The notes under the pieces: model-generated
Told to the model about the DNA's origin: nothing
What the model saw: the letters and a program-made list of their open reading frames with translations, nothing else
Databases searched by the model: none
Made by a program: the position numbers and the translations under genes
Assembly: GCA_038062115.1 (NCBI GenBank)
Contig: JBBTXS010000028.1
Location: 1 to 39,958, forward strand
Direction: 5' to 3'
Source of the DNA: Patescibacteria group bacterium
Lineage (GTDB): Bacteria > Patescibacteriota > Microgenomatia > Levybacterales > UBA12049
Length of the DNA stretch: 39,958 nucleotides
Shown here: positions 11,001 through 37,508 of the stretch, piece after piece
How positions within the stretch are numbered: position 1 is the stretch's first letter
How the letters are laid out: every line of letters begins with the position of its first letter

Positions 11001-11077
11001 ACCTAAATAAATGTGGCGTGGATAGAACACCTGAAGTATAGAAAAATCAGTTGTCAGTTTGTCTCTATATGCCCTTA

Positions 11078-17749: not shown

Positions 17750-18477
17750 TGCGATTTATTTACTTCTTCCCCATACCATTTATCAAGAGACACACGGAGT
17801 GAAATGTTTTCCTCCCGAGCAATTCTTCCAGCATGCATTATACCAACGCGATCAGCGTACCTCTTTGCAAATGAAAGTATATGCGTGGCAAAAAAGACTG
17901 TTCCACCATTTCTCGCAAACGTTTTGAGTGCCTTTCCAAAAATGTCAATGCTTGTAGGATCAAGACCTACGATTGGCTCGTCAATAATGAGCAATCTTGG
18001 CTGTGCAATAAACGCAGCAAGAAATGCAAGCTTTTGTCGATTACCACGGGAATAAAGCCCCATACGTTGATACACAATGTCTTGAATGGGAAAAAGCGAT
18101 AGGAGTTCTGAAATTCGATCATGTATTACAGAAGATGGAAGTCTTCTCAATTTTCCTGTTAAAGTAAGAAATTCAATTCCGCTTAAATAATCATAGGGGC
18201 TTGGATCATCTGATATATACCCAAACATCTCTTTTGCTTTTTCTCCTTCTTGCAAAATATCATGTCCAAAAATAGAGACAGATCCATGAGTTGGCCTGAG
18301 GAGCCCTACAAGCAGTTTAATAAGGGTAGTTTTCCCTGATCCATTGGGTCCAATAAGTGCATAGACCTGAGGGGTTTGAATCTCAAGATTGACAGAATTA
18401 ACAGCCTTTATGTGGTCAAACTGCTTTGAAAGATTAATAGTTTTTATTGCAGGAAATTCCACATTTTGTTCGAGCAT
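17746..18477 (-). CDS. ABC transporter ATP-binding protein
   Basis: Walker A GPNGSGKTT, signature YSRGNRQKL, Walker B LLIIDEP, H-loop ATH. Confidence 0.9.
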   Translation of the reverse strand: MLEQNVEFPAIKTINLSKQFDHIKAVNSVNLEIQTPQVYALIGPNGSGKTTLIKLLVGLLRPTHGSVSIFGHDILQEGEKAKEMFGYISDDPSPYDYLSGIEFLTLTGKLRRLPSSVIHDRISELLSLFPIQDIVYQRMGLYSRGNRQKLAFLAAFIAQPRLLIIDEPIVGLDPTSIDIFGKALKTFARNGGTVFFATHILSFAKRYADRVGIMHAGRIAREENISLRVSLDKWYGEEVNKSQ

Positions 18478-18587
18478 GGCATCACTACTATATCAACAGT
18501 AAAAAAACAATTCAAGGTGGTATATAGAATCGTTCATGACAAAAATGCTGCCGCGTAAATTTGTGTCATATTTTATTTTCAGATGTG

Positions 18588-18660
18588 GGTGGTATAGCGG
18601 ACTCGAACCGCCAACCCTCAGGTCCACAACCTGATGCTCTGCCATTGAGCTAATACCACC
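18588..18660 (-). tRNA. tRNA-His (anticodon GTG) with encoded G-1
   Basis: G-1 plus acceptor GTGGTAT/ATACCAC, discriminator C, anticodon stem TCAGG/CCTGA with loop TTGTGGA, T arm GGCGG-TTCGAGT-CCGCT. Confidence 0.88.
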
Positions 18661-18849
18661 AGAATTGTAAATTAAGTATATCACGAGAGGCTATAGAGTT
18701 CAATTCTCTCATAGCCTACCTTTTAGATCCCAAAGATTAAGTCCAATTTCTTCCTTTCTTATAAGTCGAATTATATATTTATTTCTGGAAACTTTTGAAT
18801 AGTACATAAAAGTCTTTTTCGTAGGTTGCGCCCTATTATGTAAAAGTTC

Positions 18850-19500
18850 GGACTTCCTTTATTACTAAAAGGTAGTCGTCGCTTCGCTCCTCCTATTATT
18901 TATATTGCTCGGCCTTCGGCCTCGCTCTATGTATTTTTTGCACAAACGAAAGAAGCGCGATTTTTTAAGTAAAGAGCCGGACTTAAACTCGTTTGATTAT
19001 AGCATATTCCGTATCAACCTACCCACCCGATTATGGTGGCGGCGACCCCGCCTTTGTGCGAGAGGTCGCCCTATGGGGCGACTTGCCCATGTGTTTCTAT
19101 ATTTAGTATCTTGGTACAGTATCTTCCCTGCTTTTATTTATATTTAGTATCTCCTGCAGTCGGCGGGGTGATCCGCTTTTCGCCCCCGCCTTCTTTGTTT
19201 TATCCCTTTCTCTTTCTAGCACCTTCGGTCGCCTCTGGCGACCTTATGAATTCTTGTTGGCTCGCCCCGCAACTATTTCAATTAAAGATATTCCAGCGGG
19301 GCTCGCGATAGTCGGGCACGCTCTTTGCTAGGTTTTGCAATCGTGAAGTCAATCTATCGCGTGCCTTTATCCTGAGTTTATCGAAGGACTCCTTTTAGCA
19401 ACGACTCCATTTTGGGCGGGGGCGGCGGAGCCAGTCACCGACTGGTGCCTGGCGGACCGCCACCAAAAAGAATCGGCCGGAATGGTGGAAATTGGCCGAT
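18850..19500. other. GC-rich, hairpin-dense intergenic region; candidate structured RNA or leader (unidentified)
   Basis: No credible ORF. My count for 19381-19440 is 37/60 G+C, against 23-38% in sampled coding lines. Perfect hairpins at 19065-19082, 19227-19243, 19431-19445, 19264-19270/19296-19302, 19305-19311/19354-19360 and 19162-19168/19184-19190. Confidence 0.4.
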
Positions 19501-19677
19501 GACTTATTAACCGAAGAAGAAATTCTAGACCTAGCCCAGAGAATTAAAATTGCAAAATTAATTCTTGACGGCAAGACTTATGATGAAATTGCAGAAAAAG
19601 TTAAAACTTCAACATCAACAGTTTCGAAGATTGGACAGATTATTAAATATGGTAAGGGTGGATTAAAAAGACTTTAA
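19492..19677 (+). CDS. Short TrpR/YerC-YecD-like HTH protein
   Basis: EEILDLAQRIKIAKLILDGKTYDEIAEKVKTSTSTVSKIGQIIKYG matches the YerC core pattern (..ei..l.qR.eva..L..G.tY.eI....gaStaTIsRv). TTG start; it lacks the roughly 40 N-terminal residues of full-length YerC. Confidence 0.6.
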   Translation: MADDLLTEEEILDLAQRIKIAKLILDGKTYDEIAEKVKTSTSTVSKIGQIIKYGKGGLKRL

Positions 19678-19731
19678 AAAAATAGTCGCTGATGACATCT
19701 CTCGGTTTTAGTTCGCATTAGAAGATAAAAA

Positions 19732-20841
19732 TTATGGAAGACTAACAGTATCTTTAAGTCTTGGGTATAAAATAACATCTCGCACTCTATCTCTACATAG
19801 CGCCCATGCAATAAATCTTTCAATTCCTAATCCAAAACCAGAAGTTGGTTTATAGTTTTTAAGTCTTCTTAAATCAATGTACCACTCATAAGGCTTAGGG
19901 TTTATACCCTGCCTTCTTAAAGATTCATACATTTCGCCTACATTATCTTGTCTTTGGCCACTTCCAACAATTTCTCCTCCAAATGAACCCTTGATAATCG
20001 GAGGAAACAGTAAGTCTGCATTTATAACTTTATTCTCTTTGTAGGGTTTTTGATAAAAAGCTACTCTGTTTCTATCGTAATGATTAACCCAAATAGGAAT
20101 TCCTGTTTTAAGTATTTCCATTAACTTTAATTCTGCTTTGCCTGAAACATCCTGGCCAGATTCGATCTCGTTAATTAAATTTCCATTCCTAGAATCTTTT
20201 AGTATCTCCACTACATTGTCAAACTCCATTTCTTGAAATTTCTTTGCTCGCAATAGTGACTGTAACTTTTTAATTGACATTTTCGAATTAGCACTTAATA
20301 AACTCAAGATATTTGGCATGGACACAAGAGTTTCAGCTAGAAATTTTACATAACCTTCTATTTGTGGCTTTAATTCTCGTAGGGTTCCTGATATTTCCGC
20401 TTCACAATGATAAAACTGATTCAAGTGTTTTTTATCTGGTTTTTCGCCCCTCATTGAAGGTAAATAGCAATAAACTTTCTTAATTCCATTTACAAGAAGA
20501 GGCTCAAAACCAAATTGTGAAGAATCAGTTAAGTAGACATTAAATTTACCAAACTTTAGATTTATCGCTTTCGAATCTGATCCAGGACCCATTGGAGAGG
20601 AAATACTTTGCGTAATCATAAATAAGTCAAGATTATACGCATGTTGCATGTCTCCCCAGTAAATATCACAAGCTAGTTTAATATAATGCCTCAACACAGA
20701 CAAAGCTTGAAAATAAGGTGATTTCGCTACTTCTATATAGTGGGTCTTCCCATCATAGACAGGTAATTTAAAATCATCTCTATCTTTATTAAAATAGTTA
20801 TTGTCAGATTTTTTGATTTTGTTTTTAAAATCGTTACTCAT
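19732..20841 (-). CDS. AsnRS/AspRS-like class IIb aminoacyl-tRNA-synthetase catalytic core without anticodon-binding domain (stand-alone amino-acid adenylating ligase)
   Basis: Motif 2-like SMRGEKPDKKHLNQFYHCEAE (fRaE...rHL.EF..E.E); motif 3 GFGLGIERFIAWAL followed by RDVILYPR (compare AsnRS RDVIPFPR); YLTDSSQFGFE (compare YLTQSPQLY). At 369 aa there is no OB-fold N-domain. 4-bp overlap with the upstream gene. Confidence 0.75.
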   Translation of the reverse strand: MSNDFKNKIKKSDNNYFNKDRDDFKLPVYDGKTHYIEVAKSPYFQALSVLRHYIKLACDIYWGDMQHAYNLDLFMITQSISSPMGPGSDSKAINLKFGKFNVYLTDSSQFGFEPLLVNGIKKVYCYLPSMRGEKPDKKHLNQFYHCEAEISGTLRELKPQIEGYVKFLAETLVSMPNILSLLSANSKMSIKKLQSLLRAKKFQEMEFDNVVEILKDSRNGNLINEIESGQDVSGKAELKLMEILKTGIPIWVNHYDRNRVAFYQKPYKENKVINADLLFPPIIKGSFGGEIVGSGQRQDNVGEMYESLRRQGINPKPYEWYIDLRRLKNYKPTSGFGLGIERFIAWALCRDRVRDVILYPRLKDTVSLP

Positions 20842-21707
20842 GCTCGTTCTCTAATAAAAAATTCTTTTTCTTCTAGGTAAAAATTCTTCCTAAAAAGCGC
20901 AATAAAATATGATAAATATTTATTGTTTTGGGTAAATGTTATCATATAGCCAAGCCATTTTTTATATATTTCTTTTTTAATTTCTTGGCCTAAGCTAGCA
21001 ATATGAGGCTTTTGTAAAAACATAGTTACATATTCTTCTACATCTTTTCTAGATTTATTTTCAAATTTATACTCTTTGAAATAATACAATTCATACTTAT
21101 TATTTGTATTAAAAACATTCAGCCAGTCATTTTTATTGAAATATTTTATTTGAGCACCAATTATCCCACTCACTGCATCTAATACTTGCTCTGGTGGTTT
21201 CTTTCTGTAAAATAATTGGGTAGTTGCTAAAAATCCCCAGGGTTTTAGGACTCTGAAATATTCGCTTACAGCTTTTTTCTTGTTTTCCATAAAGGAAGTG
21301 GCTCCACCACACATCACTAAATCAAAATACCCTTGCTCAAAAGGAATATCATAAGCAGATCCAACTTTAAAAACCACCCTCTTCCTTACGTCTTCAGTAT
21401 CTTTATTCAATGTATAATTTGCTTCATTTACACAACTTTCAGAAATATCTATTCCATAAACTTTGGATTTAGTTATATGAGCAAATTCAAGAGAATTGAA
21501 TCCGGTATTTGAACCAACATCAAGAATTTTACAATTTTGTTCTACAAATGTATTATGAACGATCTCTCTTATGGAGCTCTTTCCACCAGGACAACGATTT
21601 GTTTCTTTTATGAAAGATATAAAGTCCGTATAAGACAAAGATTTGATGTATTCTTTGGTTATTTTATTCATATAACTGACCCTTGACATCATGATGAATT
21701 GAATCAA
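20838..21707 (-). CDS. Class I SAM-dependent methyltransferase
   Basis: Motif I ILDVGSNTGFNSLEFA, motif II YGIDISESCV, FDLVMCGGATSF. ATGA-type 4-bp overlaps with both neighbours. Confidence 0.8.
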   Translation of the reverse strand: MIQFIMMSRVSYMNKITKEYIKSLSYTDFISFIKETNRCPGGKSSIREIVHNTFVEQNCKILDVGSNTGFNSLEFAHITKSKVYGIDISESCVNEANYTLNKDTEDVRKRVVFKVGSAYDIPFEQGYFDLVMCGGATSFMENKKKAVSEYFRVLKPWGFLATTQLFYRKKPPEQVLDAVSGIIGAQIKYFNKNDWLNVFNTNNKYELYYFKEYKFENKSRKDVEEYVTMFLQKPHIASLGQEIKKEIYKKWLGYMITFTQNNKYLSYFIALFRKNFYLEEKEFFIRERA

Positions 21708-22744
21708 AACTCTGCATATATTTTTCTTTTTTTAGAATCAATTCTGACTTTTTTGCCGTAAGGCATTGGAACCTGAGGATCGCTATGTCCAAAATCCAAA
21801 TTTTGAACTACTGGTATGGACTTATTATATTTCCTGACTGTTGTTAGAATTGCGTCTCCCTGTTGTTTACGATATTTATCTTTTTGTTCCTTGCTGTTCT
21901 GCCTATCAAATTCCCAAGCTTTTGGTCTTCCCACTAATATACCTTTCACTCTTTCCAAAATACCTCTTTCTCCTAAAGATCTATAAACTCTATAAACATA
22001 ATTAGCAGTTGGTATTTCTTCTGATGTTTCGGTCATTAAAATAATATTTTCAAAATCTTCTAAAGATGGAATTTCAACACTATGTCTTAGGAGCTCATCT
22101 ATTGATTCTAAACAACCGCCCCAGGTGATTCCTTCAGTATTTTGATCAGCATCCCAAACCCAACCTTCGTTTGGTTCATAAGTTCTTTGTTTTTTTAGAT
22201 TCTCCGTATCACTCCAGTCTAAATCAATGTCGTTATATTCTTTGCTCGCTTCTAGTTCAAATTCGCCTTTTTCAAATAAAGCTAATTTCAAATATTTAAG
22301 GGTGTATTCATGTATTTTTCCTTGCTCTGCAAATTGCGTAAATAAAGCGCCGCCATAATATGATGGTATGCTATTCAACCAAAGAAAATTCATAAAGTGA
22401 GTATTATCACTGTAGCCAAAGTAGGGTTTTGGATTACTTTTAAATGGCTCGGCTGGCAAATTCTTAATGTAGGTTATTTGATCGTCTCCTCCAAGAGAAG
22501 ATATAACACCTTTAATCTCTTTATCTTCAAAAGCTGCAATTAAATCTTTAGCTCGTTCTTCTTTGGAAGCTCCAACCTTTTTAGTAGTCGGAAATTCTAC
22601 TGGTTCTAATTCAAAAATCTCTCGTAGTCGTTTCAATCCTAGCTCATAAACATGAGGCCATTTTCCTGGAGCAGCAAATGATGGCGACAGAATAGCAACT
22701 TTATCACCAGGTTTAATTTTATTCATCAAGAGAAATTGTCTCAT
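21704..22744 (-). CDS. S66 serine peptidase (LD-carboxypeptidase LdcA / microcin C7 immunity MccF family)
   Basis: PGDKVAILSPS N-terminus, nucleophile motif GYSDNTHF, acidic ETSEE, His motif DFGHSDPQVPMPYG (Ser-Glu-His triad intact). Likely start is ATG 22726 (MNKIKPGD). Confidence 0.8.
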   Translation of the reverse strand: MRQFLLMNKIKPGDKVAILSPSFAAPGKWPHVYELGLKRLREIFELEPVEFPTTKKVGASKEERAKDLIAAFEDKEIKGVISSLGGDDQITYIKNLPAEPFKSNPKPYFGYSDNTHFMNFLWLNSIPSYYGGALFTQFAEQGKIHEYTLKYLKLALFEKGEFELEASKEYNDIDLDWSDTENLKKQRTYEPNEGWVWDADQNTEGITWGGCLESIDELLRHSVEIPSLEDFENIILMTETSEEIPTANYVYRVYRSLGERGILERVKGILVGRPKAWEFDRQNSKEQKDKYRKQQGDAILTTVRKYNKSIPVVQNLDFGHSDPQVPMPYGKKVRIDSKKRKIYAEF

Positions 22745-22770
22745 GTCTTGTATTGCAATTTTACATCAAA

Positions 22771-23844
22771 ATGTACCAAAAACCAAATAATTGTTATAAT
22801 ACTAAAAACATGCCGAACCTAAATAAACACGACCTTGTTCTTTTTAAATCTAGTGAATTTCTAGGTTTTGAAAAATTTCTTGAAAAAAACTATCAGTTTA
22901 GAATAATTTCCACTGAGTATCCGCCGTATGTTTCGTTTACTTCCAGAAAAGCTATTATTCACACCGATAAGGGCACATTTTTCCTTAAAGAAAAACCTGA
23001 ATATTCTAGCGATAAACTTTCCTTAAATAAATCAGGTAGATTTCAAAGATATGCAAGTTTCAAGCTAGATGTTGTACCTAAAATTAGGCTTACAAAAAAA
23101 GATGAGTGCTTTGTTATGTGGAAAAGCAGGTTTTACTTTTTGACTGAGTATAAAAAAGGCAGAGTCTTTAATGGGTCTGATCAAGATGTTAACTCAATGT
23201 TAAAAGCTCTCAATAAATTGCAAAAAATTGGCAAAGAATTTACAAGTAAAAAAGACGTACCGCTTGATGTTCTAAAGCGGATTGAGTCATATGAAGTAGC
23301 CAAACTGACTCCTTTAATTAAAAAATATGCTAGATCAAAAAAAGAATCTTCAATTTATGGAAAAATAATTAAGTGTTTAGAAATGCTGAAAAAAGAATAT
23401 ATTTCTTTGCCCAAAAAGGAATACTTAATGAGCCATGGTGATTTTATTATTTTTAACATTATATTTAGAAATAACGAAGTCGTTGCAATAAACGATTTTG
23501 ATAATGCAAAAAAACTACCAAAATTACATGATTTAGCCGAATTTTTAGTTTCATCTACAATGTTCAACTATATTGGTTCACTAACAAATATGAAACTTCC
23601 AGTCGTTCTTGAGCCACAAAAAAGTAAATTTAAATTAATTATGAAGTCATATGTACGAGATTTTTCTTTGTCCAAAAAAGATGTTGTCTTACTCAGTACA
23701 ATAGCAGAAATTATCTGGCTATGGACATTATGTTTATCTGTCCTTAAGGGCGATTATAGAATTTCGGATTTAGCAAAAGTAGTGAGAAGAGTAGAGAAAA
23801 GAAGCTTATCTAACTTGATTAAAAACACTGCTGCTTATTTTTAG
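22771..23844 (+). CDS. APH/choline-kinase-fold phosphotransferase (paralog 1)
   Basis: Brenner motif SHGDFIIFN and metal-binding INDFDN; lysine motif FFLKEKPEYS. Paralogous to 27236..28366. The start is uncertain (TTG 22753, ATG 22771 or ATG 22810). Confidence 0.75.
   Translation: MYQKPNNCYNTKNMPNLNKHDLVLFKSSEFLGFEKFLEKNYQFRIISTEYPPYVSFTSRKAIIHTDKGTFFLKEKPEYSSDKLSLNKSGRFQRYASFKLDVVPKIRLTKKDECFVMWKSRFYFLTEYKKGRVFNGSDQDVNSMLKALNKLQKIGKEFTSKKDVPLDVLKRIESYEVAKLTPLIKKYARSKKESSIYGKIIKCLEMLKKEYISLPKKEYLMSHGDFIIFNIIFRNNEVVAINDFDNAKKLPKLHDLAEFLVSSTMFNYIGSLTNMKLPVVLEPQKSKFKLIMKSYVRDFSLSKKDVVLLSTIAEIIWLWTLCLSVLKGDYRISDLAKVVRRVEKRSLSNLIKNTAAYF
22792..22800 (+). promoter_or_regulatory. Candidate extended -10 promoter element in the divergent intergenic region
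   Basis: TGTTATAAT (TGnTATAAT) lies 9 nt upstream of ATG 22810 of the kinase ORF, between the divergent S66 and kinase genes. Confidence 0.3.
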
Positions 23845-23950
23845 ACATGACTTGCTTAAGTACAAATCAAAATTAAAGTGACCTTAAATTTTAGATAAAT
23901 ATGCAGCGCCTTGCTAAAGCACTATCTTTGGATTAAAATCATTGTTAAAT

Positions 23951-25630
23951 ATGACAATTCCTTTTTCCGAACTACTCCAAAAATATCTTTTATCCGTAGG
24001 AATAAATAAAATGTACGGAATTGTTGGCAGAGAAGAGAGTTCTTTGACGTTTAACACATTAGAAGATTTTGAATTTATTTTAACTAGACATGAAATGACA
24101 GCTGGTGTTATGGCCACTGCCATTTCAAGGTTCACAAGAAGCCCGCAGGTCTGTTTTGGAACGCTTGGACCAGGTATTACTAACTATATGACTGCTCTTG
24201 CTACAGCAACGCTTGATCGTTACCCATTGATTTTGATTGTAGCTCAATTAGAGACGCCATATATTATATATAATGACATGCATCAATGTGTTGACAATGT
24301 ATCTATAGCAAAACCTTTATCAAAATATGCATACGAGCTCAAAAGTCCCAATGAGCTTAAATCTGCTCTTGAGTCAGCATTGAAAGCTTCAATGACTTTT
24401 CCATTTGGGCCATCTGTGATATCAATTCCTATTGATATCTTGTCTTCTGATCTAGAGATTGATTCTGCAACAGCAACAAGCTTGAATAAGGATGTCATTC
24501 TCCCTTCAATATCTGAAGATTATGATATTAAAAATTTAGTAGAAGAGGCCGCTAAGATTATAAAATCGAGTAAAAACCCTTTAATAATAGCTGGTGATGC
24601 AATAGTTAAAACTGAGGGAACGATAAGTAAAGTTAAAAAATTCTCTGAAAATACAAACATTCCTGTAATTACAACGTATTCCGCAAAGGGAGTTATAAAT
24701 AGAAATTCACCATTAAATTATGGTGTTTTAAGTTCCTATATAGATTCAGTGGTCAAAGAAAATGTGAACGAAAAAATATTTAATAAAGCAGATACTCTTA
24801 TTTTTATTGGTTATGATTTATGCGAAAGACATCCATTTTTATGGCCTAGTAATAGTATTCCCAAGGTTTTGATAAATATAAATTCATATCATAATAATGT
24901 TCATAAGGCACTAAACCCGCACGTCAATATAATATCCCGCTTAGATAAAAGCATTGATTTACTAAAAGATTATTTAAAGGGTTATAAAAATAAAAAACTT
25001 ATCGAGATAAATAAGATCAATAATAAAATTAATAAATTACTTAAAGATAAAACTCACTACAAAGACGGAATAACTCATCCTCAAATTTTAAATTCTTTGA
25101 ATGATCATTTTAATGAGGATTATATTTTAGCTAATGACATAGGAATGCACAGGCATTTGTCTAGCATTTTCTTTAAAAATGATAAACCTGAATATTACGT
25201 GACTTCGGAAGGATTATCTTCATTTGGAACAGGTTTATCATTAGGAATGGGAGCTAAGATTGCAAACCCTAATAAGCCCGTTGTTGTGATTGCAGGTGAT
25301 GGTGGATTTCACTCCAATGACGGGGATATTGAAACAGTAGTTAGACTTGGTTTGAAAATTTTAATCGTGGTTTTAAACAGTAGCTCAAACGCATTAATAG
25401 AGAGATATCAATTAAAAGGAAAGTACAAAAATATGAATAAAAAAAATACTTCATTTGGCAAAGTTGATTTTGATTTATTGGCAAAGGCAAATGGCTGTCA
25501 GTCTGATAAAGCGCAAAACATTGAGGAATTTAATAAATTACTTAAAAAATATGATAATATTGACGGACCTTTTTTAATTGAAATACCCATTTATTATCCA
25601 CAACACTATGTAAATGAATATTCAAAATAG
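23951..25630 (+). CDS. Thiamine-diphosphate-dependent enzyme, acetolactate-synthase-like three-domain type
   Basis: N-domain GTLGPGITN; ThDP-binding motif GDGGFHSNDGDIETVVRLGLKILIVVLNSSSN (GDG...N). About 560 aa. Confidence 0.8.
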   Translation: MTIPFSELLQKYLLSVGINKMYGIVGREESSLTFNTLEDFEFILTRHEMTAGVMATAISRFTRSPQVCFGTLGPGITNYMTALATATLDRYPLILIVAQLETPYIIYNDMHQCVDNVSIAKPLSKYAYELKSPNELKSALESALKASMTFPFGPSVISIPIDILSSDLEIDSATATSLNKDVILPSISEDYDIKNLVEEAAKIIKSSKNPLIIAGDAIVKTEGTISKVKKFSENTNIPVITTYSAKGVINRNSPLNYGVLSSYIDSVVKENVNEKIFNKADTLIFIGYDLCERHPFLWPSNSIPKVLININSYHNNVHKALNPHVNIISRLDKSIDLLKDYLKGYKNKKLIEINKINNKINKLLKDKTHYKDGITHPQILNSLNDHFNEDYILANDIGMHRHLSSIFFKNDKPEYYVTSEGLSSFGTGLSLGMGAKIANPNKPVVVIAGDGGFHSNDGDIETVVRLGLKILIVVLNSSSNALIERYQLKGKYKNMNKKNTSFGKVDFDLLAKANGCQSDKAQNIEEFNKLLKKYDNIDGPFLIEIPIYYPQHYVNEYSK

Positions 25631-25726
25631 ATTGCTATAACAACTTTAATCAGGCATCTTAACGCATTATTATAGGTGTCTAGGTTGGGATAAGGACAAA
25701 AAAATGATATGCTTGCTTCATTGAAT

Positions 25727-25858
25727 ATGGTAATTTCGTTAAAGTCAGTTAAAAATCAGGAAAAGGTAAATAATGTAAAAAGAGACATTGCGAAACTTGA
25801 CAAATTTTTAATTTTTTTGAATAAAATGGCAAAATTAAAGAAAAAAAAGAATTCATGA
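25727..25858 (+). CDS. Hypothetical 43-aa lysine-rich small ORF, stop overlapping the NDK-like start (ATGA)
   Basis: I translated it as MVISLKSVKNQEKVNNVKRDIAKLDKFLIFLNKMAKLKKKKNS; TGA 25856-25858 overlaps ATG 25855-25857. No homology evidence. Confidence 0.2.
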   Translation: MVISLKSVKNQEKVNNVKRDIAKLDKFLIFLNKMAKLKKKKNS

Positions 25859-26547
25859 GAAAACCAGAAATATTCCAGCAAATAGAAGCCCCACAAGCTT
25901 TTTCTACTCGAAGAAGAGCAAGTGAAGCTATACGTGGATTACAAGAGGGGTCGATAAATTTAGACCAACTAGAACAGATAAGATTAGTAAAAATTAAAGC
26001 ACTATTGGAGCATCCTGAGTTGCAAAATTTAATAGATGAAAATAAAATTACACTTGGAATTATTAAGCCTCATGTAAATGAAGGTAAAAATCTTCCAAAA
26101 GATGACGACGAAGCGGCTAAAGTATTGCTAAATGAAATAAGCGAAGAAAACGTAGTTTTTACTTTTTCTACACAACTAACTGGAAATCAAGTTGAAAGTT
26201 TTTATAGCGATGTAAAACAGAAATATTCTCAGATCACTACCAATGCACAGGGTCAAACAGTTTGGGATACTATTTATAATTTTGGACAATCAGGACCATT
26301 AACATTTCTTCTGATTTACAGAGAAGAGGGCAATGCTATTGAATGGTGGAGAAATAAGATGGGAAAGACAAGGCCAAACGAAGCAGATCCTGAAAGCATT
26401 AGGGGTAAATATGCTTTACAGGAAAAACTACCTAATAATTTAACTCATGGTAGCGATTCAGCTGAGTCTGTAAGAAAAGAAATTAAAGAATTAGGCAATA
26501 TTGTTGAGGCAATTTTAGAAACAAATGTTCCACATATAAATCAATGA
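25855..26547 (+). CDS. Divergent nucleoside-diphosphate kinase with about 60-aa N-terminal extension
   Basis: TLGIIKPHV (compare ..IKPD.V), SGPLTFL, ADPESIRGKYA and the active-site motif NLTHGSDSAESVRKEI (N..HGSDS.eSa.kEI). Confidence 0.7.
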   Translation: MRKPEIFQQIEAPQAFSTRRRASEAIRGLQEGSINLDQLEQIRLVKIKALLEHPELQNLIDENKITLGIIKPHVNEGKNLPKDDDEAAKVLLNEISEENVVFTFSTQLTGNQVESFYSDVKQKYSQITTNAQGQTVWDTIYNFGQSGPLTFLLIYREEGNAIEWWRNKMGKTRPNEADPESIRGKYALQEKLPNNLTHGSDSAESVRKEIKELGNIVEAILETNVPHINQ

Positions 26548-26556
26548 CTTTCCTCA

Positions 26557-27144
26557 TTAGAAAGTTGTTATTTTTTCCCTTAAGTTGCTCGGTAAAGATT
26601 TTAACTCGTCAGGATTTAAAAAACCACTAGAAAGAAAAATTGCACTCACCCTATCAAGATCTAGTGGATAAGGTACAGTAACTATTCCTGTAGTGGGTTG
26701 GTACGTCACTGAGTGTTTAAACAGTATTGTTTCTGCCATCAAACCATCGCTTAGACGTTCTATCCTGAGATTATGTTGCCTGCCTATTCGTTTCATTTGC
26801 TCCGTATAGCTTTCCGATGGTATAGATAGCCAATCACCATCTATAGTATCTCTATCAAAGAGATAATATGCCCCAGACTTGTAATGCATAAGGGCTGTTA
26901 AACAATCTCCTAGAAACACACCATAGCTACCCATTTGACCAGATTGCGGCTGGAAGTTTCGTTGATTTATGTCTAATAAACGATTTTTGTTAGATTCATC
27001 TCTTAATAACCATCTCTGTGGAATTTTAGCATTTGGGTTAGGATTTTTTGGTATATCTAGTCCATTCTCATCGAGCACCCTTTTTAGGGGTAACATTCTA
27101 TCTCTATGATTTTCTAAAAATTTTCTTTTTGATTCTGCTGTCAT
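26557..27144 (-). CDS. Orphan protein; weak Cys/His papain-like (C39/BtrH-like) hydrolase pattern
   Basis: QPQSGQMGSYGVFLGDCLTALMHYKSG resembles the Q...C..a..M..y.G nucleophile context. A later ILFKHSVTY...VTVPYPLD is a possible His/Asp. This is pattern-level evidence only. Confidence 0.3.
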   Translation of the reverse strand: MTAESKRKFLENHRDRMLPLKRVLDENGLDIPKNPNPNAKIPQRWLLRDESNKNRLLDINQRNFQPQSGQMGSYGVFLGDCLTALMHYKSGAYYLFDRDTIDGDWLSIPSESYTEQMKRIGRQHNLRIERLSDGLMAETILFKHSVTYQPTTGIVTVPYPLDLDRVSAIFLSSGFLNPDELKSLPSNLREKITTF

Positions 27145-27235
27145 ATGGTAAGATATTATCTGAATATAAAAACGTAAGTATTATAGATAAGATTATCTTA
27201 AAGTTCAATAAGTGTGGCTCAATATTATTATATTT

Positions 27236-28366
27236 CTATAATATTGTTGGTATATTTTTTTCTACAAAGGCTTGGAAAGATAATGCTTCTAATACATCGC
27301 GATAACTAAAATCACCCCTAACAATTCCCAGAGACATAATTTTTGCCCATCGTATGTTCATTTCGCCAACTAACTCGGCTTTTTCTTTCGGAGACAAGGC
27401 TGGTGAATTTGCTGCATAGCCCTTGATAAAAGCTTTTGCTTTTTCTAGATTTAATGACGTTGTGATAGGCTTTCGCAAGGTTGAAGTAGTTCCTGCATAA
27501 CTAAGTCCATCGCAAAATGAGATTACAGCGCCTGCAAGATCTCTTATTCTAGGACGATAGTCAACATTATCAAAATCATTTACAGCAACAACAGTGCCGT
27601 TTTTATCATAAACTAAATTAAATGGCGCATAATCTGCATGATTTACAAGGTATGGCACATCCTGATCCATCTGTCCACTGTACTTATCAACTATATCTTT
27701 TAAAGCCAGGACTGCTTTTTGCTTCCATTCATCATCTTGCGCTCCTTTTAATTGGTCAGCCATGTTAATAAACTGTAAGGTATCTTCTCCCGCATATCTT
27801 TTACGGAGATCTGGAAAATCAAATTCTTTAGATAGAAGGTGTATCTTGCCAAGTGTAGCTCCTGCATTTGCAGTATCTTGTATACTACCATTAAATATTC
27901 TTCCTTCCTTAAATTCTGTAGTTAAAAAGTGTGTTTCTCCAATTTGGAGATATGGATTTCCAGATTTTGTATTAATAATTCTTGGGACAAAGTCTGTTCT
28001 ATGAGAAAGAAATTGCTGAAATCGCGCAGAAAGAGAAAGATTATATGGATTACAAGAATATTTGGGCTTTTCTTTTATAAAGTATTTGTGTTTTCCATCA
28101 TCTATAATAACTTTCCTACTTGTTGTCGAAAAAGCAGTTGGAAATTCTGAGCCAAAGTTACTGTCTATACCATATTCTTCGCTCATAATTTTTTTTAAAG
28201 AATCATTTACTCCTAATAGAAGAAGGTCTGAGGAGTTTAAATCTCTTCCATGTACAGCTGGTTTCTTCTCTATTTCTGATGTCTGATTTGGTGCAATAAT
28301 CTCGGCTCCAATTTTAGATTTACCAGGTGCTGGAAGACCTAGCAGTTTAGGAAAATGCTCATTCAT
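27236..28366 (-). CDS. APH/choline-kinase-fold phosphotransferase (paralog 2)
   Basis: NHADYAPFN and VNDFDN motifs. YFIKEKPKYS, FLTTEFKEGRIFNGS and STTSRKVII mirror FFLKEKPEYS, FLTEYKKGRVFNGS and FTSRKAII of paralog 1. Confidence 0.75.
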   Translation of the reverse strand: MNEHFPKLLGLPAPGKSKIGAEIIAPNQTSEIEKKPAVHGRDLNSSDLLLLGVNDSLKKIMSEEYGIDSNFGSEFPTAFSTTSRKVIIDDGKHKYFIKEKPKYSCNPYNLSLSARFQQFLSHRTDFVPRIINTKSGNPYLQIGETHFLTTEFKEGRIFNGSIQDTANAGATLGKIHLLSKEFDFPDLRKRYAGEDTLQFINMADQLKGAQDDEWKQKAVLALKDIVDKYSGQMDQDVPYLVNHADYAPFNLVYDKNGTVVAVNDFDNVDYRPRIRDLAGAVISFCDGLSYAGTTSTLRKPITTSLNLEKAKAFIKGYAANSPALSPKEKAELVGEMNIRWAKIMSLGIVRGDFSYRDVLEALSFQAFVEKNIPTIL

Positions 28367-28372
28367 AGAAAT

Positions 28373-28831
28373 TTATTTTTTGGGAAACGCCACATCTAAA
28401 GCGTGGAAAAGTAATGGGTATATAAAAAGTGTTCGTGCCCTTACTTCATTAACCCATTCCAGCTCTGCTGCTACTTTGCCCTCTTCGACACTGTATCTTT
28501 CGAACTCCCCTAACCACTCGGAGACCTCGTAAATATAAAAAATTGACTTTCTTTGTTCTACGGTAAATTCTGATAAATATTCGTATTTTATCGGTGTTAT
28601 CTTTCCTCTGAATTCTTCATCAATTTCCCTTCGTAAAGCAACCTCTCTATAATCTCCTTTGTCTCCGGCTGCTATTCTATCTCTCATTTCTATTGAGCCA
28701 TTCGGAATATATGGCTCAGGAGGTTCTTTATCAAATCTGTGCTCAATCAGTAGCTGATTGTTTCTTTTAAACACAAACATTACTGCCTCCGATTTACCAT
28801 CCCTATAAGAGTATTGTGGTTTTTCTTTCAT
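28373..28831 (-). CDS. Nudix-like hydrolase (non-canonical Nudix box)
   Basis: ALRREIDEEFRG fits the REUxEExGU half of the Nudix box. The preceding G...E part is expanded (GSIEMRDRIAAGDKGDYRE). Confidence 0.55.
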   Translation of the reverse strand: MKEKPQYSYRDGKSEAVMFVFKRNNQLLIEHRFDKEPPEPYIPNGSIEMRDRIAAGDKGDYREVALRREIDEEFRGKITPIKYEYLSEFTVEQRKSIFYIYEVSEWLGEFERYSVEEGKVAAELEWVNEVRARTLFIYPLLFHALDVAFPKK

Positions 28832-29047
28832 TTAAATACATAAAACAGCTGATGAAGTATAAAGTAAAATGTTTTTGAAGTCAAATATTTTGAAGATGAT
28901 TAAGTGAATTTACTGTTTTTAGCGCATACTTATTGTTCTCTCCGTCAACTATGTAATGGAACATCTCAGTTGTCGTAGCACTTTGACATCTCAACTGTCG
29001 TAGATAAAAACGGAGTATGCTCATCTCCTAAAAAAGGAGGTGAGTAA

Positions 29048-29884
29048 ATGAAAAAACCTATAGGAAAACGTCTTGATGTAATCAAAGGGTTGCTTTCAGG
29101 AGAAATCAATATTTCTAAGGCAACAAATCTTTTATCTTGTTCACGAAGAAGTATTGAGAGATACAAAAAGGCATTTGTCCAAAAAGGAGAGGCTGGATTA
29201 AAAGATCATAGACATAGCAATTATCGAAAACTCTCCGAGAAACAAAAAGAAGATATTATTGCTTTAAAACAAAAGGATAGATGGCGTTCGGCGCGAAACA
29301 TTCGAGATGAGCTAAAACTTTCTCTAAGCGAACATCAGGTTCAAAGAATTTTAGTTGCTAAAGGATTAGGAAGGGAAAATTTAAAGAGAGTAAAAGCGAT
29401 TATCCGTTTTGAAGCAACAGCTCCCAATGATCTGTGGCAAACAGATATTATGGGAAAGATTGATTTTCCAAATATTAGTATCCTTTACCTTATCGCAACT
29501 CTTGATGACCATAGTAGATTTGTACCAGCAGGAAGATGGTTTAAAACTCAAGGAAAGATGAATGTGTTTCAAATCTGGTATGAATCTCTTTCTAAATGCG
29601 GACTTCCTGATAAGATGCTTCAAGATGAGGGATCACAATACAAAGCAAGAGCAAGGTTTGGTACAGCAGATTACGAGTGGTATGCAAAACAGGCAGGTAT
29701 CAAGCTCATCTGGGCAAACAGGGCGGAAACTAAAGGAAAAATAGAGAGATTCTGGAAGTTTGTACAGGGAGATTTTGTGCCATCCGTCATCAATGCGAAA
29801 ACCATAGAGGAGGTAAACGGCGCTTTTAAAATATGGCTTGCTAATACAATGGGTCTAGATAACTTTAGAACGGTTTTTCTCTAA
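29048..29884 (+). pseudogene. IS481/IS3-like DDE (rve) transposase, 3' end disrupted by IS1595 insertion
   Basis: Strong SD (AAAGGAGGTGA) before the ATG; HTH N-terminus; DDE residues in WQTDIMG, LQDEGSQY and KGKIERFW. The expected W..YN..RPH tail is replaced after KIWLANT, exactly at the left IR of the inserted element. Confidence 0.7.
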
Positions 29885-30590
29885 AGTCTTTCAGTAACTC
29901 TTTGTACATATTACCATTATTTATTCTAATATTCCACCGGTATTCGGATTCTTTTAAATGCAGTAAAAATTTAGTTCTGTGAATACCGTTAAATTTCAAT
30001 AATCTTCTTTTAGTATAACTCCAAAAAGATTCAATGCCATTGACATGATTTTTTCCTCTGGCAAATTCGTTTTCATGGTGATGGATACGGTAATGTTTGT
30101 ATCCGTTTAACACCAATCCGTCATAAGATTTCCAGCCATCAGTATAAATAGTTGTGTCTGCAAGAATTTTACCTTTAATAATAGGCATTAGTTCATGTCT
30201 AGAGCAGTTTGGGATGATCTGAGTATAATACTCTGCCTTTTCTTTTTAATAAACCCACTACAGGAGTTTTTCCTTTTGCTCCTCTTCCCCGTTTTCCTCT
30301 AACTCTTCTTGCTCCAAAGTAACTTTCGTCAATTTCCACCTCTTTGTCTAAAAGATTACTGTCAATTAAAAGTAATATTCTTTTTCTAAACAGAGCATAG
30401 AGTTTATTAATTGTAATCCTTGAAATTCCAGTGGCATCGCTTACAGCAAATGCTGTATAATCTTTACAGAATAACCTTAAAATCTGTCTAAATTTCTTTT
30501 CAGAAATATGGGAACGATTAAAATACTTATTTTTCATTGTCTAGACAATCTATTCTAACATATTGAGTTAGCTAAGCTTATCTAGACCCA
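29850..30590 (-). mobile_element. IS1595-family insertion sequence (741 bp) with frameshifted transposase
   Basis: Perfect 13-bp terminal inverted repeats: TGGGTCTAGATAA (29850-29862) and TTATCTAGACCCA (30578-30590). ORFs 30199..30537 and 29865..30188 (IYTDGWKSYDGL...HVNGIESFWSYTKRR). The downstream frame continues upstream as YYTQIIPNCSRHELMPII, so there is a 1-nt indel near GTATTATAC. Confidence 0.8.
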
Positions 30591-30702
30591 AACATAATAT
30601 ATTAGTCAATTAATTGCTAATAATTTAATTCAGGCGTATAATTTTGCTACAGAATTTATGGATGGCTTAGAATGGGATTTAGTGTAAAATGATAGCTTCA
30701 AA

Positions 30703-31323
30703 GTGGGCAACGATGATTTCTCTTCTTTAGAGATACATCCAACTCCTAGTAATGGGTTTTATTACTTCTTTTATCAAAAAGAAAATAGGTTAATAAAGCG
30801 ATTTGTGCTCCTCGAAAAAGACCGAGTTGACTATTTATGCACGGTAGTTCTTATTAAGAAAAATGATAAATTTTCTCCACGGCTAGCTCTTTCTATAAGA
30901 GATAAACGTAGAAAAATATTAGAGGAAAACTCTGAAAAACCTACAAAAATTAAGGCAAGTGTTAATCTGGACGATTGTTATGAAAATTTTTGGAGATTGG
31001 TTGCTTTTTTACAATCTCTTCGTGATAAAATAGAAATTCCGCAAGGCAGTTTTTCTTTGGTATCGGCAGAAGAAGGAGAAATTATCAAAGCAATTCAAGG
31101 AAGAGATGCCAAAAGTATAACAAGAATTATCAAAGAGTTATCTAAAATTGAAGGAGTTACTTTATCAGAAAGATATCGAGCAGATTCTCGATAGGAAAGG
31201 GAAGTTATCAGAATTCAAGACTAGCATTACAGTTAAAGCAAGCGATGAAAGTTGGTGGCAAGACTTTTTTGAAAATAATAAATGGATCTTCGGATATGGT
31301 TTAACTTTACAAATAAAAATATA
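30703..31323 (+). pseudogene. Shedu/DUF4263-like nuclease remnant (frameshifted, C-terminally truncated)
   Basis: ORF 30703..31194 stops, but a shift at the A-run in GAAAGAT continues as DIEQILDRKGKLSEFKTSITVKASDESWWQDFFENNKWIFGYGL. That resembles the E..WQ.FF..N.WIFG block preceding the DUF4263 nuclease core. The core itself is absent. Confidence 0.4.
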
Positions 31324-31437
31324 GAGTCTATAGATAAGGAATTTGCTCATCCGTTAAAGCAAAAGAGCTGAGTATATATTAAAATAGTCTTATATTGATT
31401 TATGCTTATCTCGACAAATCCCTGAATAAGTTAAAAT

Positions 31438-32565
31438 ACATTTGCGACATTTCAGATAGTGGCAAGTAGTACCGGAGTATCTACGAAAGCATACCCAATA
31501 TTTAGTAGAATCAAAGGCTGGAAGGAGGCGCTAAGTATGCTTTCCAGTCTAAGAGGGTACTCTTTATCTGAAGTTGCAAAGAAAAGAATGGAGATTATTA
31601 ACTTTTATGATGAGTTTGGAGAAGAGGCAACAATGAAAGCTTTTGGAGCAGACCGTAAGGTTATTAGTCGTTGGAGAAAGCGATTGGCAAAAAGTGGAGG
31701 AAGATTAGAATCTTTAATTCCTTACTCAACAAAACCTAAAACTGTAAGGAGAGTAAGCTATAGTCAAAAGATTGTTGATTTTATCAAACAATACAGAAAA
31801 GATCATCCAAGAACTGGTAAGGAGAAAATTAAAATAGAGCTTGATGAACATTGCGCAAATGTGGGAATCAAAACTGTATCGGAGTCAACAATTGGCAATA
31901 TCATCAAAAGGCATAAATTCTTTTTCCAAAAGTCTGGCAGAATCTATCATAACCCAAACTCTAAATGGGCTAGAAATGAGGCTAAAAAGAAAAAGAGACT
32001 TAGGGTTAAACATCCGCCAAAACTCGATAATTTTGGCCATATACAATCAGATGCTGTACAAAGAATAACTGATGGGATAAAAGATTATTTCATTTCTGCT
32101 ATTGATGCCAAGATGAAATTTATCTTAACCTTAAATTACAAAAGTTTAACTAGCCGTAACAATAAAGACTTTTATCAAAGATTTAAAAGTGTTTATCCAG
32201 GAAGAATTAAAGACTGGCAGTCAGATAATGGTTCGGAGAATCTTGGGGAGTTTGACCAACAGTTAACAGAGGATCAAATTCCCCATCTTTTCTCATATCC
32301 TAGATGTCCTAAGATTAATACATACATTGAAAGATACAACAGAACTGTTCAAGAGGAATTCATTGACAACAACTTAGACATTATTCATGACAAAATACTT
32401 TTTAATCAAAAACTGGTCGATTACCTAATTTGGTACAATTCTAAAAGGCCACATAAATCATTGGGTCTTAAAAGCCCGTTACAATATCTTCTTGAGAAAG
32501 GAGGTATGTCGCAAATGTCCTTGACTTATACAATCCCTGTACAATTTACGAATGATATGGTATAG
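31438..32565 (+). mobile_element. IS481/IS3-like insertion sequence with apparently intact DDE transposase (CDS 31459..32565)
   Basis: 13-bp inverted repeat ACATTTGCGACAT (31438-31450) / ATGTCGCAAATGT (32506-32518). The 368-aa ORF has HIQSDAV, DWQSDNGSE, YIERYNRTVQEEF and WYNSKRPHKSLG (rve core). The ORF reads through the right IR by 47 nt. Confidence 0.7.
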
Positions 32566-32596
32566 TGGAAACCGTAAATAATAGTGGAATAAGCTT

Positions 32597-33829: not shown

Positions 33830-34444
33830 TGGATAAATTCATAACAATAGTTTCTCCATGTCCGGTTGGACAAAGGTATCATTGTTGGTGGGCGTTTTGT
33901 AACAAATTACGTAAAAATGTCATAAAATCATACCTCTTTATATTTCTAGTCTGATTTTAAAGATATTCTTCTAGAAGTATCGTTGATGAAGTTAGAAATT
34001 TTGAATTCCCAACACTTTTCGCTTCAAATTCTTCTGCAATCTTTTCGTAAAAGGTAGAAAAAAGTTTATTGGTAAGATTTTGATTTTCAGTAGATTTGTT
34101 AAAAGAAGAAACAAAACACCCCTTGAATTATCTGGTGTCAGTATTCATAAATATTACAATTTCATTAAGCTTCTTAGGAAATCACTTAATCTAAATTTTG
34201 AGAGGGAAAAGTCGTAAATTTGTTACCAGCGCCGAATTTATAGATAGGGCTCTCCAGGGCCGAAAAATCGCGCGTGCAAAAAATACATGCGAAGATTTAG
34301 CAATCTTCGCCAAAACTGTCGGCTCGAACTTCTTTTTAAACAATCGGCGGCTTGTCTCAGAATATAATCAGGGCTTTGCAGAGGTCTTCGCGTATCTTAC
34401 TGCGCAGAGCCAGTCCTCTGCCAGCCCCACAAACTCCCTTTCTG

Positions 34445-36178: not shown

Positions 36179-36241
36179 GTCATTCTGAATTTATTTCAGG
36201 ATTTCGCTTCGCTCGAGATGCTGAAACTAGTTCAGCATGAC
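36179..36241. repeat. 63-bp palindromic miniature element (GTCATTCTGAA...TTCAGCATGAC)
   Basis: Two hairpins, ATTCTGAA-ttta-TTTCAGGAT and ATGCTGAA-ctag-TTCAGCAT, flank a TTCGCTTCGCTCG core. It sits 6 nt beyond the ancestral ahcY stop. Confidence 0.75.
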
Positions 36242-36247
36242 AATTAT

Positions 36248-37428: not shown

Positions 37429-37435
37429 TCCTAAG

Positions 37436-37508
37436 TGCCGAAGCGGTGAATCGAACACCGATAACCGCTTCTTCAGAGCGGCGCCTTGACCACATTGGCA
37501 ACTTCGGC
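37436..37508 (-). tRNA. tRNA-Phe (anticodon GAA), 3-bp D stem and 4-nt variable loop
   Basis: Acceptor GCCGAAG/CTTCGGC, discriminator A, D arm GCCA-ATGTGGTCA-AGGC, anticodon stem CCGCT/AGCGG with loop CTGAAGA, variable TTAT, T arm CGGTG-TTCGATT-CACCG. Confidence 0.8.

Follow-up and report, generated by a model that had tools for sequence, protein, structure and literature searches.

A gene block in a Patescibacteria genome that probably encodes an agrocin 84/microcin C-type aminoacyl-adenylate mimic and its antidote

At positions 19732-28831 of contig JBBTXS010000028.1, from a Patescibacteria group bacterium of the Levybacterales (assembly GCA_038062115.1), lies a block of nine genes that an earlier note, made from the letters alone, described as an accessory island combining enzymes in an unassigned way. 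The contig was analysed whole, and its 39,958 nucleotides are the window referred to throughout. All nine open reading frames (ORFs) lie at the coordinates and on the strands given in that note, its domain labels were reproduced by Pfam and NCBIfam profile searches, and motif inspection found the catalytic motifs intact in all enzymes of the block. Three genes on the minus strand come first: a ligase gene of the AgnA type, reduced to the tRNA-synt_2 core (19732-20841); the gene of a class I S-adenosylmethionine (SAM)-dependent transferase of the AgnB1/MccD type (20838-21707); and that of an S66 serine hydrolase of the MccF/AgnC5 type with both the N- and C-terminal Peptidase_S66 domains (21704-22744). 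The plus strand then carries kinase A, a small-molecule kinase of the APH fold (22753-23844; Pfam APH, 1.5e-8), a three-domain thiamine diphosphate (ThDP) enzyme resembling carboxyethylarginine synthase (CEAS) (23942-25630), and a gene related to nucleoside diphosphate kinase (NDK) (25855-26547; Pfam NDK, 4.6e-17). The last three genes are again on the minus strand: a 195-amino-acid orphan of no family (26557-27144), kinase B, also of the APH fold (27236-28366; Pfam APH, 7e-14), and a divergent Nudix-like hydrolase whose Pfam NUDIX match is marginal (28373-28831; 21.3 bits against a cut-off of 21.1). The tight packing reported at first sight, with spacers of 4-10 bp, holds at four junctions (two 4-bp overlaps, by which the transferase gene overlaps each of its neighbours, and two short gaps, of 6 and 9 bp); the other gaps measure 91-224 bp.

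The ligase is best compared with AgnA of agrocin 84 biosynthesis, a truncated asparaginyl-tRNA synthetase (AsnRS) without the anticodon domain that has been proposed to join an amide to AMP via a phosphoramide bond (PMC4392301; PMC8323819). Over 333 amino acids the two proteins are 33% identical (E 7e-52), and they share family-specific motifs such as SSPMGxGSDS. The Pfam domain tRNA-synt_2 spans only residues 99-362 of the window protein, and Pfam finds no tRNA_anti-codon domain in it. The class II synthetase motifs are present (R131 in MRGE, E147/E149, GQRQ at 295 and GFGLGIER at 335). An AlphaFold2 (AF2) model with a pLDDT of 83.8 has AsnRS 1X54 as its top fold match (TM 0.76), and the N-terminus of the model is helical, with no OB fold. 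The same structure, 1X54, is the best solved AsnRS by sequence, at 111 bits, against 34 bits for the archaeal asparagine synthetase A structure 3P8T. Two housekeeping assignments were tried and rejected. A canonical asparaginyl-tRNA synthetase does not fit the missing anticodon domain, the helical N-terminus and a TIGR00457 score of 162 bits against an equivalog cut-off of 343; an archaeal-type asparagine synthetase A does not fit the NF005055 score (166 bits, cut-off 389) and the weak 3P8T match. A split AsnRS was also considered and set aside. By alignment, the ligase retains the AsnRS-like pocket residues Q109, E113, E147/E149 and R297 and lacks the lysine of the QSPQxxK motif of aspartyl-tRNA synthetase (AspRS). 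Since those pocket residues are kept and that lysine is gone, our best guess is that the substrate would be asparagine- or aspartate-like and the target AspRS or AsnRS.

The two genes that overlap or adjoin the ligase gene in the same operon have their closest characterised relatives in the same two antibiotic systems. The SAM transferase aligns with AgnB1 over its full length (32% identity, E 1e-56) and with E. coli MccD over 174 amino acids (28%, E 2e-24), a stretch that covers the N-terminal, non-Rossmann ETNRxPGG segment; among the methyltransferases compared, MccD matches this subfamily only. MccD moves a 3-amino-3-carboxypropyl group from SAM onto the phosphate of microcin C, and MccE1 then decarboxylates that group (PMC8323819). 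MccF severs the aspartyl-N bond, which is the basis of self-immunity (PMC8323819). The S66 protein of the window matches E. coli MccF at E 4e-21 and AgnC5 at E 9e-36. Its best PDB matches are the Bacillus MccF-like structures 5F9M/5F5X (E 1e-46), followed by MccF structures (E 1e-16 to 1e-22), while the LdcA structure 5Z01 is reached only at E 3e-4. S112 (in GYSD), E239 (TETSE) and H320 (FGHSD) are present, which we take to be the Ser-Glu-His triad. An LdcA-type LD-carboxypeptidase was rejected on the gap between the LdcA and MccF-like E-values (3e-4 versus 1e-46) and on an NF008424 score of 43 bits against a cut-off of 378. The preference is not peculiar to this copy: a typical S66 partner from another locus gives 6e-44 with E. 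coli MccF and 1e-12 with LdcA, and by sequence the S66 partners of the ligase all belong to the MccF clade. When plasmids were searched by tblastn with an S66 protein from a sister locus, agnC5 of pAgK84 was returned.

Beyond the trio, the block carries further enzymes. The ThDP enzyme of the second operon matches CEAS (PDB 1UPA) over the full length with 405 bits (E 4.6e-120), against 207 bits for the next match, an acetolactate synthase. The list of homologs shows the same sharp step, from CEAS-like proteins at 302 bits or more to acetolactate-synthase-like proteins at 195 bits or less. E51 and the GDG-N ThDP motif (452-483) are kept, and on sequence grounds the enzyme is clearly CEAS-like and not an acetolactate synthase. 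Kinase A (HGDFIIFN at 228, DFD at 248) is predicted to be co-transcribed with it, and this gene pairing is kept in the related loci L001, L002, L014 and L093. Kinase B (HADYAPFN at 243, DFD at 264) resembles the APH protein encoded in the AgnA-type cluster of Streptomyces virginiae (E 1.5e-27); judged by similarity, AgnA-type clusters outside this phylum thus contain kinases of the same type. Neither kinase found a match in the PDB. The Nudix-like protein retains a REIDEE core at 68 within a degenerate box, and it is conserved in L014 (74%) and L093 (90%).

CEAS-like enzymes are not confined to this kind of cluster. APH genes also adjoin CEAS-like genes in L086 and L087, and across the loci compared the family appears by sequence to be a versatile building-block enzyme that is usually paired with an APH kinase. 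A DPANN archaeon (L086, 6566-12319) and a Levybacterium (L087, 5746-11336) share a cassette of an adenylosuccinate-synthetase (PurA)-like protein, a CEAS-like ThDP enzyme, a protein of about 470 amino acids with no assigned function and an APH kinase with weak similarity to methylthioribose kinase. At L085 (1-15855), a CEAS-like gene with 64% identity stands between a GluRS-like gene and a multi-gene block encoding a glutamyl-tRNA-reductase-domain protein, GTP cyclohydrolase II, a HAD protein, an aminotransferase and serine hydroxymethyltransferase, which is an unexpected set in a genome of the candidate phyla radiation (CPR).

The NDK-like gene and the orphan are convergent neighbours and appear to stand apart from the rest of the block. 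The NDK-like protein has an N-terminal extension of about 65 amino acids and keeps the catalytic histidine and HGSD at 198. The orphan has no match in Pfam, NCBIfam, PHROG or PADLOC, belongs to a small family (68 representative matches), and gave a single-sequence AF2 model with a pLDDT of 39, which is unusable. P0396, a 427-amino-acid protein from a different organism, unites an NDK domain and an orphan domain in one chain; because of this fusion the two window proteins are probably functional partners. Besides the window, only L014 and L093 have the two genes in the cluster, and they are probably an adjacent nucleotide-metabolism pair and not core members of the cluster. The picture of nine genes as one island therefore needs amending: the nine genes are in place, but they are not homogeneous, with the NDK-like gene and the orphan as a separate pair and a tenth gene, encoding a PheS-related ligase described below, that was probably once adjacent.

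The strongest evidence that the first three genes belong together comes from other genomes. The ligase has hundreds of relatives at 55-84% identity, and those with names are all from Patescibacteria. A scan of 185,579 genomes, one per species, returned 113 relatives, of which 80 loci were kept, and linkage was counted by tblastn and by clustering all neighbouring ORFs at 82 non-redundant loci, mostly from Patescibacteria. The CPR lineages represented include Paceibacterota, Saccharibacteria, and Shapiro-, Wolfe-, Kaiser-, Falkow-, Moranii-, Gracili-, Magasanik-, Uhr- and Portnoybacteria. An AgnC5-like S66 gene lies within 5 kb of the ligase gene in 70 of the 82 loci (median distance 0.8 kb), a SAM methyltransferase gene is a neighbour in 70, and both are near in 61. 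This co-localisation is far beyond chance. Far from never meeting in other genomes, which the earlier note had allowed for, the genes of the trio are linked in 61-70 of the loci; APH kinases, whose co-occurrence was surveyed at the same time, are near the ligase in 10. The gene set is an accessory mobile module and not a housekeeping one. Nor is the block an island of its own kind, since it recurs in many genomes. The full arrangement seen in the window, with two APH kinases, the ThDP enzyme and Nudix, is repeated in L001, L002, L010, L014 and L093, at 64-89% identity of the ligase, or of the ThDP protein where the ligase was not compared.

Around the trio the loci vary. A second, very divergent class-II-synthetase-like gene, weakly HisRS- or AlaRS-like, is present in 50 of the 82 loci; the second-ligase families that we call HISl and X gave no significant profile match to AgnC1 or to each other, and a PDB search with HISl found no matches. 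Some sister CPR loci carry an ornithine/diaminopimelate-decarboxylase-like gene that matches the N-terminal decarboxylase of MccE (MccE1-like, E 1e-16), others carry an AdoMet decarboxylase, and in L001 a HIT gene follows the ligase. An AspRS gene adjoins the cluster in L001, L002 and L024. In L045, L046, L053 and L054 (for example L046, 12925-14313), divergent OB-domain LysRS-like paralogs come after the ligase, methyltransferase and S66 genes, and in L045 and L046 an ordinary-looking LysRS follows as well. Outside Patescibacteria, AgnA homologs with 42-62% identity are found in Streptomyces, Kitasatospora, Myxococcus, Xenorhabdus, Tistrella and others. Plasmid 2 of the cyanobacterium Calothrix parasitica NIES-267 (L019, 6970-11080) carries a methyltransferase, an AlaRS-core-like gene, an S66 gene and an AgnA-like ligase; this ligase is 57-58% identical to CPR proteins, which suggests a recent transfer of the module between phyla. 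By sequence comparison the module is horizontally spread in Patescibacteria and is also present in a cyanobacterial plasmid, Xenorhabdus, Myxococcus and Streptomyces.

The history of the block itself can be read from its closest relative, L093, which is colinear across it; the L093 contig ends just outside, so only the immediate left neighbour is shared. Window 19498-25632 corresponds to L093 50-6166 (86% DNA identity) and window 25652-28886 to L093 6725-9952 (89%). Between these segments, L093 6193-6726 holds a 177-amino-acid NUDIX gene after the ThDP gene that has no counterpart in the window, and L001 and L002 have a 175-amino-acid NUDIX gene in the same place downstream of their ThDP genes. 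The window has lost this gene. What had been read as a small ORF between the ThDP and NDK-like genes is the position of the scar (25631-25854, opposite L093 6167-6724, by alignment to relatives), where just a doubtful 43-amino-acid ORF is left.

A second rearrangement lies to the right. An IS-rich insertion of 3.7 kb (28887-32590; IS, insertion sequence), placed by alignment and Pfam, is absent from L093. Pfam identifies three IS-type transposase genes here, in agreement with the three IS elements proposed earlier: an IS481-like rve gene (29048-29884), a broken IS1595 (29865-30537) and an rve_3 transposase gene (31459-32565). The insertion also encodes a 163-amino-acid protein of no assigned function. 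The IS1595 element has 19-nt inverted repeats (29850-29868 and 30572-30590), its transposase is split into two ORFs, and it overlaps the 3' end of the IS481-like rve gene. Immediately beyond, at 32597-33829 on the plus strand, lies a gene for a monomeric, PheS-related class II ligase of 410 amino acids (NCBIfam NF051887, 367 bits against a cut-off of 300; Pfam tRNA-synt_2d and FDX-ACB). NCBIfam titles this family 'PheS-related mystery ligase SrmL', and the protein resembles monomeric, mitochondrial-type PheRS; a literature search on SrmL found nothing relevant. In L093 the gene (10041-11297) stands directly upstream of the Nudix gene and on the same strand, and window 32591-33830 aligns to L093 11279-10040 in inverted orientation (86% DNA identity). 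By this comparison the IS block has displaced and inverted the ligase gene, and the unit probably once reached it. Because the PheS-related ligase is next to the cluster in no locus besides L093, its membership is uncertain; it could be a second ligase or a gene of the resistant-synthetase type.

On the left, a gene for a small helix-turn-helix protein of the YerC/YecD (TrpR-like) type (19492-19677, plus strand; TIGR02531, 53 bits, cut-off 42) keeps the same place beside the cluster in L093, at 86% amino-acid identity. It is possible that it regulates the block, or that it is merely the left neighbour. The tRNA-His noted earlier is located at 18587-18659, and the GC-rich region beside it is a spacer at about 18700-19500 with a G+C content of 0.45. 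This 0.8-kb non-coding spacer (18700-19490, 43-45% G+C) sits between the tRNA-His and the YerC/YecD-type gene, is packed with short G+C-rich hairpin-like repeats and has no Rfam match: a search of the whole window and a permissive scan of 18400-19800 returned tRNAs only. A promoter and terminator scan of the block gave no excess over shuffled expectation. Two further observations concern more distant parts of the window. A protein encoded at 9921-11000 on the plus strand joins an ATP-cone to an Mrr-type restriction-endonuclease domain. At 36180-37458 on the minus strand, a 177-amino-acid ORF covers only the N-terminal third of S-adenosylhomocysteine hydrolase and overlaps a PfkB-family kinase ORF; it may be a truncated or frameshifted gene.

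The block had been thought to look foreign by composition, on five spot counts of G+C (14, 19, 18, 23 and 30 of 60) that proved exact. A dip does exist, but it is modest and confined to the first five genes: the G+C content is 32.6% in the block and 36.5% elsewhere in the window, with 31.6% at 19732-25630 and 35.1%, near background, across the last four genes (25855-28831). Per-gene Mann-Whitney tests gave p = 0.049 for G+C and p = 0.021 for G+C at third codon positions (GC3). No att-like direct repeats flank the block, the only terminal inverted repeats found being those of IS1595. The case for mobility is stronger from comparison than from G+C: the flanking genes of the window have no match in L001, L002, L010 or L014, the lineages that carry the module are patchy, and a copy resides on a Calothrix plasmid. 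The label of a foreign island, given for the composition, is weakly supported.

Taken together, we consider it probable that the block, which many ultrasmall bacteria of the CPR share, is a cluster of the type that makes the "Trojan-horse" antibiotics agrocin 84 and microcin C, making a hydrolysis-resistant aminoacyl-adenylate mimic (an N-acyl-phosphoramidate nucleotide) along with its antidote. The earlier proposal of an aminoacyl-nucleotide antimetabolite with built-in immunity finds support in the homology of the trio to agn and mcc genes and in its linkage across dozens of genomes, and on these two grounds it fits better than any of the alternatives that we weighed. In such a pathway, the CEAS-like ThDP enzyme, assisted by kinase A, would build an unusual amino or acyl unit; by analogy to CEAS, it might convert a triose phosphate to an acryloyl-ThDP intermediate, which would then alkylate an amine and give an N-(2-carboxyethyl) product. 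The AgnA-like ligase, using ATP, would link an asparagine- or aspartate-like amide or acid to adenosine 5'-phosphate, forming an (N-)acyl-adenylate or phosphoramidate bond. The MccD-like enzyme may then decorate the product, most likely at the phosphate if it acts as MccD does, and kinase B and the Nudix enzyme or enzymes may tailor, mask or inactivate the nucleotide part. Compound accumulating in the producer would have its acyl-N bond cleaved by the MccF-like hydrolase, conferring self-immunity. The likely target would be an aminoacyl-tRNA synthetase of class II in another cell nearby.

Several points weigh against this interpretation. When all agn proteins were used as BLASTP queries, they matched window proteins only through AgnA, AgnB1 and AgnC5, with none found for agnC1-C4, C6, C7, D1, E1, E2, F or G. 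The ThiF-like MccB and the precursor peptide MccA of microcin C are absent, there being no ThiF domain in the nine proteins and no match to MccB; here the adenylating enzyme derives from a synthetase, which makes a peptide-borne product improbable. The identity to AgnA is only 33%, so both substrate and chemistry may differ. The block contains no gene recognisable as that of an exporter, and the window no clear second, resistant version of a target synthetase. Full-length AspRS, LeuRS and LysRS genes do occur near the trio at some loci, at a frequency not clearly above chance. If synthetase genes make up about 2.5% of genes in small genomes, which is our estimate, that frequency is roughly what chance predicts, and we dropped these neighbours as proof of a target. 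The CEAS-like family is found in unrelated contexts too, and neither the CEAS-like enzyme nor the kinases have a firm step in the scheme. Lastly, AgnA-type chemistry rests on an enzyme whose reaction has never been shown in vitro (PMC8323819; PMC6482885), and its CPR members are known from their genes alone.

The alternative that survives best, although we regard it as unlikely, is that the block makes a different small molecule and no synthetase inhibitor. The CEAS-like enzyme might form an N-carboxyethyl amino acid whose beta-carboxylate the ligase would adenylate, closing a beta-lactam ring, or the ligase might form an N4-substituted asparagine. Clavulanate biosynthesis offers a model, as the CEAS step is followed there by an ATP-dependent enzyme of the asparagine-synthetase type. 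The specific CEAS likeness of the ThDP enzyme, at 405 bits, agrees with such a route. The ligase scores alike against the models of asparagine synthetase A and AsnRS (166 and 162 bits), and NCBI names AgnA homologs 'asparagine synthetase A'. Most loci, however, have the ligase, methyltransferase and S66 genes without a CEAS-like gene, so the role of the ligase cannot depend on CEAS chemistry. Clavaminate synthase, amidinohydrolase and an AsnB-type synthetase are missing from the nine proteins, and the MccD-like and MccF-like partners point to phosphoramidate nucleotides instead.

It is distinctly improbable that the block makes nothing and serves only resistance or detoxification, guarding the cell against the microcin C-like or agrocin-like toxins of others. 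Stand-alone MccF homologs are common and protect against microcin C (PMC8323819), and the HIT gene that follows the ligase in L001 is MccH-like. A purely protective island sits poorly with a ligase that is ATP-using by homology, has intact catalytic motifs and is related to the biosynthetic AgnA. Nor does it account for companions of a biosynthetic kind, namely the ThDP enzyme, kinases, SAM transferase, decarboxylases and ATP-grasp proteins.

Two further readings are, to our minds, very improbable. In the first, the genes are housekeeping genes that are neighbours by chance: a tRNA-independent asparagine synthetase, an LD-carboxypeptidase that recycles cell wall, an acetolactate synthase, an NDK and kinases. 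Every domain family in the block does have housekeeping members, the remainder of the contig differs little from the block in G+C, and the NDK looks catalytically normal. Yet the 185,579 species genomes yielded only 113 relatives, dispersed across many CPR lineages, and the flanking genes are not shared with relatives at 64-73% identity. The S66 protein falls in the MccF clade and not with LdcA, the ThDP enzyme is CEAS-like and not like acetolactate synthase, and all scores against NCBIfam housekeeping equivalogs lie far under their cut-offs. In the second, the ligase modifies a macromolecule (a protein, a tRNA or an envelope polymer) and the S66 enzyme processes the target. A precedent exists in EpmA/PoxA, a class II paralog (of LysRS) without an anticodon domain, which modifies EF-P. 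The motif 2 loop of the ligase is AsnRS-like in length in the alignment, and several loci have further synthetase-like paralogs, both of which would suit such a role. Against it, no candidate target gene is conserved beside the module, and for all three core genes the nearest characterised relatives lie in small-molecule antibiotic clusters. A nucleotide-modifying anti-phage module, which the earlier note had also raised, is hardly credible: the Nudix, kinase and NDK proteins do act on nucleotides and IS elements adjoin the block, but PADLOC found only generic methyltransferase similarity and a weak Nudix match among the nine proteins, there were no PHROG matches, and no other defence genes are nearby.

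If the block is indeed a cluster for an adenylate mimic and its antidote, it would provide a concrete handle on how CPR bacteria compete with or control other cells, and it would add to a class of natural products that is still very small. The genomes of CPR bacteria are tiny, and their biosynthetic capacity is slight. Some of their versions of the cluster are compact, with three or four genes only, and could serve as simple systems for AgnA-type, MccD-like and MccF-like functions. That a CEAS-like enzyme accompanies the trio here hints at new chemistry for a rarely seen ThDP reaction. It is tempting to speculate further that a mobile hybrid of the agrocin 84 and microcin C gene sets is widespread in Patescibacteria, making peptide-free mimics with an AgnA-type catalyst of the N-P (or acyl-P) bond and with a warhead built here by the CEAS-like enzyme and two APH-fold kinases, as a new class of nucleotide antibiotic that these epibionts could turn against hosts or competitors; this broader proposal is tentative, and we hold it with distinctly less confidence than the assignment of the block itself.

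Of the systems already described, agrocin 84 is the nearest. On plasmid pAgK84 of Rhizobium rhizogenes K84 (CP000632), agnA, annotated as 'agrocin 84 synthetase', is followed directly by the SAM methyltransferase gene agnB1, agnB2 encodes a resistant LeuRS, and agnC5 belongs to the same cluster. AgnA, AgnB1 and AgnC5 all have homologs in the block, and pAgK84 also carries Nudix genes. The agn cluster resides on a conjugative plasmid, whereas the mobility of the block is deduced from its patchy distribution and the Calothrix plasmid copy. The differences are substantial: identity across the trio is only 28-33%, the host is a CPR bacterium and not a rhizobium, the window has no LeuRS gene, of the resistant AgnB2 type or otherwise, and it carries in place of the other agn genes a CEAS-like ThDP enzyme, two APH kinases, the NDK pair and originally a PheS-related ligase. 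The biosynthetic pathway of agrocin 84 is itself still unsolved (PMC8323819), and as of 2019 enzymatic N-P bond formation was established only for microcin C (PMC6482885).

Microcin C, encoded on E. coli plasmids (for example NZ_CP132731), shares with the block the MccD-type transferase (E 2e-24) and the MccF-type hydrolase (E 4e-21), and sister CPR loci have the MccE1-like decarboxylase as well. The product class that we would expect, an N-acyl-phosphoramidate adenylate mimicking aspartyl-AMP, is the same. Unlike the mcc genes, the block has no MccC pump and no GNAT domain. Clavulanate biosynthesis shares only its first enzyme, CEAS (1UPA), with the block; Pfam and NCBIfam searches of the nine proteins found no AsnB-type beta-lactam synthetase, clavaminate synthase or amidinohydrolase.

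AgnA-type clusters of three other bacteria were also compared. In Xenorhabdus bovienii (L091), ligase, methyltransferase and S66 genes stand in the same order and are followed by a nucleoside phosphorylase, two glyoxalases, a LeuRS-like gene, a class-II-like gene and an MFS pump. Myxococcus xanthus (L090) has ligase, GNAT, class II synthetase and S66 genes. The cluster of Streptomyces virginiae (L092) runs through ATP-grasp, cupin, methyltransferase, ligase, a second ATP-grasp, an ornithine-decarboxylase-like gene, Nudix, APH, MFS, ParA-like, HAD and S66. Counterparts of its Nudix, ParA-like, decarboxylase and ATP-grasp genes are found by similarity among the accessory genes of the CPR loci; because of these matches and that of kinase B, the kinase and Nudix genes of the window count as recurring members of this type of cluster. 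MFS exporters set these clusters apart from the block, two of them have an additional gene for a full-length synthetase, and a CEAS-like enzyme is missing from all three. Identity to AgnA is 42-45% for their ligases, against 33% for the ligase of the window.

A 2021 review placed agn-like clusters only in Ensifer and Actinobacteria (PMC8323819), and our literature search for work tying MccF or AsnRS paralogs, CEAS or agrocin to Patescibacteria found nothing relevant. The earlier claim that no cluster of this composition had been described, making the block a candidate new system, was nevertheless too strong: the core trio is the described agn/mcc gene set. Judged by these sequence comparisons, the kind is known from agrocin 84 and microcin C, and what is new is the CPR branch, its hybrid agn/mcc make-up and its extension by a CEAS-like enzyme.

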